Assembly: GCF_003334385.1 (NCBI RefSeq)
Contig: NZ_QOWN01000203.1
DNA: 328 nucleotides
Direction: 5' to 3' (one strand)
Origin: Escherichia coli
GTDB lineage: Bacteria > Pseudomonadota > Gammaproteobacteria > Enterobacterales > Enterobacteriaceae
Shown: piece by piece, positions 1 through 328 of the stretch
Layout of the letters: every line of letters starts with the position of its first letter
How positions within the stretch are numbered: the first letter of the stretch is position 1
The notes under the pieces: model-generated
What the model was told of the DNA's origin: nothing
What the model saw: only the letters and a program-made list of their open reading frames with translations
Databases searched by the model: none
Position numbers and translations under genes: made by a program

Positions 1-230
1 TGCACACCGGATTCCATCCCGCCATCGCGGGAACGCCGGGAAAGGACCACCACATTGCGGCGCAGTTTTCCCCTGCGCACCGGTGCCCGTGACACCACTT
101 CTTCTTTCAGTTCATTCGCCCCCGCGCGGGTTGCCTCACGCAGTACCCGGTTGTTTTCTGCACCACTCAGAAGCTGCAAATTACGGCTTATTTCTTCAAG
201 TCCCGAAAAATCCAGCAGGGTTTCGATCAT
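1..230 (-). CDS. Phage tail-component / head-tail joining protein, HK97 gp10 family (N-terminal 76 codons; 3' end lies beyond position 1)
   Basis: Minus-strand ORF starts at ATG (complement of 228-230) and stays open to the window edge. Translation: MIETLLDFSGLEEISRNLQLLSGAENNRVLREATRAGANELKEEVVSRAPVRRGKLRRNVVVLSRRSRDGGMESGV. The N-terminal 'gLeEl..L..L' stretch followed by 'RAPVRRGKLRRNV' matches my recollection of the HK97 gp10 family pattern (roughly 'aP.dTG.LrrSi'; Pfam PF04883 / TIGR01725). A GGGAGGGG Shine-Dalgarno sits 6 nt upstream of the ATG. Family assignment is from memory, not a search. Confidence 0.72.
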   Translation of the reverse strand, partial: MIETLLDFSGLEEISRNLQLLSGAENNRVLREATRAGANELKEEVVSRAPVRRGKLRRNVVVLSRRSRDGGMESGV

Positions 231-328
231 TTTTCCCCTCCCAGCCGACAGAGAATTTCCAGGCGCCCGCCGGTCGCATCCGGCACGGGCACCCCGACAA
301 CATTCAGGATACAGTCACGCCAGGGACC
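227..328 (-). CDS. C-terminal 33 codons plus stop of an upstream phage morphogenesis protein, possibly a head-tail adaptor / head closure protein (5' end lies beyond position 328)
   Basis: Minus-strand frame is open from the window edge (328) to TGA (complement of 227-229). Translation: GPWRDCILNVVGVPVPDATGGRLEILCRLGGEK*. The stop overlaps the downstream ATG (ATGA). The product name is inferred only from synteny, since head-tail adaptor genes commonly precede gp10-like genes in HK97-type clusters. I do not recognise the C-terminal sequence itself. Confidence 0.55.
   Translation of the reverse strand, partial: GPWRDCILNVVGVPVPDATGGRLEILCRLGGEK
235..242 (-). promoter_or_regulatory. Shine-Dalgarno ribosome-binding site for the gp10-like gene
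   Basis: Minus-strand sequence GGGAGGGG (complement of 235-242) lies 6 nt (after the GGAGG core) upstream of the ATG at 230-228, within the last codons of the upstream gene. Confidence 0.6.

Follow-up and report, generated by a model that had tools for sequence, protein, structure and literature searches.

A 328-nt stretch of Escherichia coli DNA spanning the junction between a head closure gene and an HK97 gp10-type tail completion gene, probably of a lambdoid prophage

The window, by which we mean the whole 328-nt stretch of DNA analyzed here, encodes parts of two adjacent genes on its minus strand. The longer of the two parts starts with an ATG at positions 230-228 and stays free of stop codons for 76 codons until it runs off the window at position 1. 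Translation of 230..1 gives a protein that begins MIETLLDFSGL..., and the residues encoded within the window are MIETLLDFSGLEEISRNLQLLSGAENNRVLREATRAGANELKEEVVSRAPVRRGKLRRNVVVLSRRSRDGGMESGV. The other frame enters from position 328 on the same strand, translates to GPWRDCILNVVGVPVPDATGGRLEILCRLGGEK, with GGRLEILCRLGGEK as its C-terminal part, and ends at a TGA at 229-227. The former was assigned to the first 76 of the 148 codons of a gp10-family tail completion gene (Ne1/TCP; 1..230, minus strand), according to its translation, its matches to PF04883, PHROG 5 and TIGR01725, its identity to HK97 gp10 and the RefSeq protein WP_032270882.1. The latter was assigned to the last 33 codons and the TGA of a head closure gene (Hc1, SPP1 gp16 family; 227..328, minus strand; 116 aa in all), according to its translation, PHROG 25, TIGR01563, its identity to the HK97 protein and RefSeq. 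The gp10-type gene extends past position 1, and the head closure gene starts past position 328. In the genomes that are 100% identical to the window, the RefSeq CDS limits are the same as those given here (locus positions 20230 and 20227 correspond to window positions 230 and 227). RefSeq names WP_032270882.1 'HK97-gp10 family putative phage morphogenesis protein' and the upstream gene 'phage head closure protein'. Both genes are already known and annotated, and nothing within the window is novel; the view of the earlier note that this is a known kind of system was correct.

The two genes share four nucleotides, since the TGA at 229-227 and the ATG at 230-228 form an ATGA (227..230, minus strand) that can be read directly from the sequence. 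The same holds for a Shine-Dalgarno-like GGAGG at 241-237 (237..241, minus strand), which is located within the 3' end of the head closure gene at a spacing of 6 nt from the gp10-type ATG (surrounding minus-strand sequence, ...CTGGGAGGGGAAAAATGAT). We regard the GGAGG as the putative ribosome-binding signal of the gp10-type gene, and the ATGA overlap is the predicted point of translational coupling between this gene and the head closure gene. The upstream gene had been described from the letters alone as co-directional and tightly coupled, and the stop-start overlap agrees with that description. HK97 has the same 4-nt overlap between its head closure gene and gp10 (5545-5883 and 5880-6329). 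Besides the two genes, an ORF scan of both strands of the window returned just two out-of-frame ORFs of 35 and 21 aa, both lying over the gene junction and neither of them supported, and no meaningful ORF on the plus strand. Scanning the window against Rfam with E values up to 1 matched no family.

We then consider the family of the gp10-type protein. The earlier note had proposed that the 76-residue N-terminus on the minus strand resembles HK97 gp10-family proteins. The 76-aa fragment matched PF04883 (HK97-gp10_like) with an i-E of 1.5e-8 and 35.9 bits, over residues 13-71 and model positions 2-59 of 78, and PHROG 5 'tail completion or Neck1 protein' with an E of 1.1e-14. BLASTP against HK97 gp10 gave 65% identity (E 2e-32). 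The proposal was therefore upheld by these matches, which also rule out the reading of the 76-codon frame as a chance ORF. Against TIGR01725, the fragment reached 26 bits (E 1.1e-5, model positions 1-64 of 120), which is below the curated equivalog cutoff of 30.8 bits because model positions 65-120 fall outside the window. When the full 148-aa protein from a 100%-identical locus was used, the score rose to 80 bits and the alignment covered model positions 1-120 of 120, so that the check suggested in the earlier note came out positive. The full protein aligned with HK97 gp10 (NP_037704.1, 149 aa), the reference member of PF04883 and TIGR01725, at 73% identity, with an E of 2e-82 and a single one-residue gap; the HK97 reference genome used for the protein comparisons was NC_002167. 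Judged from these alignments, the gp10-type protein is a member of the HK97 gp10 family and is a close orthologue of HK97 gp10.

Tblastn found the gp10-type protein in 244 phage records, at 97-98% identity in Stx phages, 66-74% in HK97-like coliphages and Klebsiella phages, and 27-40% in Burkholderia, Bordetella and Pseudomonas phages. The gp10 part of the window differs from that of phage Stx2a_WGPS6 by 15 nucleotides and three amino acids, and from other chromosomal copies by 2 to 11 nucleotides and one or two amino acids. This pattern of substitutions is consistent with purifying selection. A search of PDB sequences with the full 148 aa (phmmer) returned only designed beta-propeller 'Bagel' repeat proteins. 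Their individual E values were above 100 per stretch, and these hits were dismissed as artefacts of summing over repeats. No HK97 gp10 chain or close solved relative was found by sequence in the PDB copy searched. A further profile, PHROG 23409 ('unknown function', 264 positions), aligned its positions 117-192 with the gp10-type fragment (E 1.5e-48) and, weakly, its positions 84-98 with the first 15 residues of the head closure fragment (E 0.15). This profile may have been built from ORF calls that cross the junction between the two genes.

The genes on both sides of the gp10-type gene were compared with profiles and with HK97 in the same way. The 33-aa head closure fragment matched PHROG 25 'head closure Hc1' with an E of 2.8e-4, and it had no NCBIfam match, the fragment being too short. 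The full-length head closure protein scored a marginal 22 bits against TIGR01563 (cutoff 20.6) and was 44% identical to the HK97 head closure protein (E 2e-35). The gene downstream of the gp10-type gene was 49% identical to the HK97 tail terminator (E 3e-39). RefSeq calls this gene 'tail completion protein gp17', and the phage records call it tail terminator. It is the tail terminator gene; the RefSeq name follows SPP1 gp17, a terminator or tail-to-head joining protein. The current literature uses 'tail completion protein' for the gp10 family itself. The gene order Ad1-Hc1-gp10-terminator-major tail was the same in HK97, Stx2a_WGPS6 and the exact-match chromosomes, and HK97 gp10 occupies the same place between head closure and tail terminator as the gp10-type gene. 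Such a position, one gene before the tail-to-head joining or terminator gene and two before the tail tube gene, is a hallmark of the family (PMC11099176).

Where this piece of DNA occurs was quantified by megablast. At an identity of at least 90%, the window was present in 1,244 of 5,426 complete E. coli genomes, nearly always on the chromosome. Two chromosomes, from strains 2013C-3033 (human stool, USA) and SW070917 (wastewater, Galapagos), were 100% identical to the window, which was checked base by base. Including these two, twelve E. coli genomes reached at least 99% identity, and most of the others fell between 90% and 95%. The window is part of a very common lambdoid prophage lineage of E. 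coli. In the phage collection, 92 records covered the full window at 90-95% identity, most of them Stx1a-, Stx2a- or Stx2c-converting phages. These records raise the question of whether the window could come from a free phage genome, either virion DNA or a virome contig, instead of a bacterial chromosome, because such prophages are inducible and the same DNA could be obtained from particles. However, the best phage record was only 93.6% identical, compared with two E. coli chromosomes at 100% and ten more at 99% or above. We consider a free phage source very unlikely and take a chromosomal prophage as the origin of the window.

The Stx-converting phages Stx2a_WGPS6 (genus Pankowvirus), 1717, 2851 and YYZ-2008 were 93-94% identical to the window at the DNA level and 97-98% identical at the protein level. 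Their gene order from the terminase to the tail tip is identical to that of the prophage. One difference is that the tail region of Stx2a_WGPS6 has an ant/arc insertion, whereas the 2013C-3033 prophage has neither ant/arc nor annotated stx. The exact-match prophage also has the layout of Stx-converting phages in a DNA methyltransferase gene, tRNA-Ile and tRNA-Arg, and a gene for a SASA-family esterase (L001:34387-38860). In the 2013C-3033 prophage, the interval from the Q/tRNA region to the SASA esterase gene has no annotated stx genes, and a 142-aa ORF annotated as 'TolA' occupies the usual place of stx. The window marks the type of lambdoid prophage by which enterohaemorrhagic E. coli carries its Shiga toxin genes, and it is therefore usable as a prophage marker. 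Its importance beyond correct annotation is small: the biology of gp10 and tail completion is an active structural topic, to which the sequence of the window adds nothing.

The element around the window was delimited in the exact-match genome NZ_CP027323.1 (strain 2013C-3033). It is about 52 kb long and extends from ~981.4 kb to ~1,034 kb, with approximate ends. In the order of transcription, the exact-match chromosome has a control and lysis block (Q antiterminator, tRNAs, SASA esterase, the holin/lysozyme/spanin region and an HNH endonuclease), a packaging and head block (small terminase, large terminase, the 645-aa capsid gene, a small ORF and portal), and a joining block (head-tail connector Ad1, head closure, gp10 family and 'tail completion protein gp17'). 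The tail block that follows consists of the major tail subunit, chaperones G and T, the tape measure, an M-like 'phage tail protein', L, a K-like C40 peptidase, an I-like tail assembly protein, J and a tail fibre. Upstream of the control block there are RusA, replication and regulatory genes (repressor-like regulators), an exonuclease, an excisionase and an integrase adjoining potC. The structural gene order is common to both exact-match genomes and phage Stx2a_WGPS6. As the earlier note had anticipated, head genes lie past position 328 in the 100%-identical chromosomes (head closure, adaptor, portal, protease-capsid and both terminase subunits), and tail genes lie past position 1 (tail terminator, major tail, the G and T chaperones, tape measure and tail tip).

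The note had also expected a -1 frameshift in the tail chaperone. In the chaperone G gene, a slippery heptamer A AAA AAG was found in phase just before the G stop (L001:18274-18280, minus strand). The T frame (-1 relative to G) is free of stop codons starting 22 nt ahead of the G stop; RefSeq annotates G and T separately. The conserved G/GT frameshift is thus a plausible feature of the prophage tail chaperone, as far as the heptamer and the open -1 frame indicate.

Integrase and excisionase genes, Q, a lysis cassette and a complete set of head and tail genes, all of which characterize a lambdoid prophage, were found in NZ_CP027323.1. The earlier note had left a choice between a prophage and a phage-derived element such as a gene transfer agent or a phage-inducible chromosomal island. 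Genes of the HK97 gp10 family are also present in RcGTA-type clusters (PMC11409702). Nevertheless, an element of about 52 kb with a complete lambdoid layout, including integrase, excisionase, exonuclease, regulators, replication genes, Q, holin, lysozyme, spanin, terminases, a head and a lambda-type tail, makes a gene transfer agent or an island extremely improbable. The prophage part of that claim stood, with integrase and excisionase beside potC, and the alternatives within it did not.

Our overall reading is that the window consists of the 3' end of the head closure gene, followed by the 5' half of an HK97 gp10-type tail completion gene, in the late operon of a lambda-like siphovirus prophage, with the role of the protein assigned by homology; we give it a probability of roughly 0.93. 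The gene anatomy, family, synteny and prophage context in this reading come from the analyses above. The virion location, the assembly order and the mutant phenotype are taken from published relatives. In the proposed course of assembly, the head closure protein would cap the adaptor ring beneath the portal of the DNA-filled head. The gp10-type protein would probably join the tail once the tail terminator has capped the tube. By analogy with its relatives, it would finish the head-proximal end of the tail, aid head-tail joining and be required for productive DNA delivery.

The relatives are as follows. Within the tail completion protein family, Auzat et al. (2024, PMC11099176) take HK97 gp10 as the reference protein of PF04883. 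SPP1 gp16.1 helps to build the connector-binding surface of the tail, and DNA cannot be routed properly into the cytoplasm without it (PMC11099176). In 80alpha, the inside of the neck holds one copy of gp51, which is bound both to the ends of the tape measure trimer and to the end of the DNA (Kizziah et al., PMC11661146). The literature places both proteins in the same family, and their genes have the same position as the gp10-type gene. HK97 gp10 has pairwise homology to SPP1 gp16.1 and a predicted fold like that of gp51; moreover, AlphaFold models of HK97 gp10, SPP1 gp16.1 and lambda gpZ resemble 80alpha gp51 (PMC11661146). At the sequence level, 80alpha gp51 is too distant for phmmer to find among PDB chains with the gp10-type protein. 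SPP1 and 80alpha infect Gram-positive hosts, unlike the E. coli prophage. HK97 has cohesive ends. By contrast, 80alpha packages DNA by a headful mechanism (PMC11661146). Because of this difference in packaging, the contacts with the DNA end may differ between 80alpha and HK97-type phages.

Lambda gpZ acts at the same step of the assembly pathway, its gene has the same place in the gene order, and its core fold is predicted to be similar. In lambda, the gpZ-type protein is the last addition to the tail before joining, and virions without gpZ assemble with ~500-fold lower infectivity (PMC11661146), so that its loss gives normal-looking, poorly infectious particles. However, gpZ is 192 aa long with an inserted beta domain, and a published comparison found no pairwise homology to HK97 gp10 (PMC11099176). 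It is a functional analogue or a distant relative, not a member of the same subfamily.

The location of the family may not be uniform. Since p143, the family member of T5, has been assigned to the tail tip and not to the neck (10.1101/2024.10.16.618446), the location of gp10-family proteins may differ between phages, and the gp10-type protein could be a virion component of the tail tip. [quoted passage not shown] On the other hand, the same T5 study describes a common fold for the predicted structures of the remaining members, among them HK97 gp10, from which T5 p143 departs (10.1101/2024.10.16.618446). 80alpha gp51, the sole member with a high-resolution structure, lies in the lumen of the neck (PMC11661146), and the genetics of SPP1 indicate the tail-head interface (PMC11099176). 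The gp10-type protein, at 73% identity to HK97 gp10, is 148 aa long and not 255 aa. A tail-tip location is therefore improbable in our view, and the neck is the preferred site for the gp10-type protein.

The resemblance to HK97 does not extend to the head genes. The 645-aa 'major capsid protein' is a fusion in which residues 48-152 make up an S78 prohead protease domain and residues 386-633 a capsid domain of the HK97 fold, and its gene sits between the large terminase and the portal (L003:15707-17644, minus strand, equivalent to L001:23706-25643, minus strand). In HK97, three separate genes encode portal, protease and capsid, in that order; in the prophage, the S78 protease and the capsid are fused in a single gene that precedes the portal gene. 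Also unlike HK97, the prophage portal is trailed by, or fused to, a 407-aa repeat protein. Because the fused protease-capsid gene precedes the portal, the prophage is mosaic, with HK97-like joining genes and a head module of non-HK97 layout, and its likeness to HK97 is limited to the joining and tail genes compared.

The portal gene was inspected in five chromosomal copies, and PGAP annotates it as frameshifted in four of them and intact in the fifth. The portal locus is located at L001:20910-23494 (minus strand), ~0.6-3.2 kb past window position 328. Relative to the intact 860-aa gene of WGPS6, the sole internal indel was a run of five instead of six G at nucleotide 1346, ~1.9 kb outside the window in the exact-match locus. 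All four 'frameshifted' copies (L001, L002, L006 and L008) had G5, and both intact copies (L003 and L007) had G6. The G6 form encodes an 860-aa portal fused to the repeat domain. The G5 form encodes a complete HK97-type portal of 454 aa (TIGR01537, 353.7 bits, model positions 2-343 of 343), and a second ORF of 407 aa, the ATG of which overlaps the TGA of the 454-aa portal (ATGA). The 'frameshifted' portal may be two real coupled genes and not a dead gene; a homopolymer sequencing error or slippage is also possible. That the G5/G6 run works as a slippage switch, programmed or phase-variable, instead of being a pseudogenising mutation or a plain allelic difference, we regard as unlikely. The profile phrog_8767 starts exactly at residue 455 of the fused portal form, suggesting that the split arrangement of portal and 407-aa ORF is annotated in other phage genomes too.

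These observations bear on whether the prophage is still active. The genes could be exactly as described and the prophage nonetheless defective and decaying, with the gp10-type gene as a relic outside the production of infectious particles. The PGAP call of a frameshifted portal in four of the five chromosomal copies would fit such decay, and so would the several small pseudogenes in the early region of the exact-match prophages. The flanks of the 2013C-3033 prophage point in the same direction: potC/potD lie at the integrase end, and yodB/zinT and an IS621 transposase lie at the tail-fibre end (L001:1-3000 and L005:7400-10600; NZ_CP027323.1, about 981 kb and about 1,035 kb). On the K-12 map, potC and yodB/zinT are far apart. 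Because they are not neighbours there, the flanks suggest a chromosomal rearrangement between prophages. If the portal defect is real, the gp10-type gene may not now serve infectious particles. Nevertheless, the G5 form, with its complete 454-aa portal and the ATGA-coupled 407-aa ORF, looks intact. The other structural genes are all full length, and the differences in gp10 among copies are mostly synonymous. We consider decay doubtful, and we retain the reading of the gp10-type gene as a tail completion gene of a late operon.

At the other exact-match locus, in SW070917, the tail-fibre end of the prophage adjoins a gene for an S6 family peptidase. As for the second ORF of the G5 form, the 407-aa sequence (L001:20910-22133, minus strand) had no PDB match by sequence, and its lone NCBIfam match was far under the cutoff; Pfam searches with the fused 860-aa form gave nothing significant past the portal domain. 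The ORF contains 3.4 tandem copies of a 162-nt (54-aa) unit, in an array at L001:21364-21917. The 407-aa region of L002 has one additional 162-nt repeat unit.
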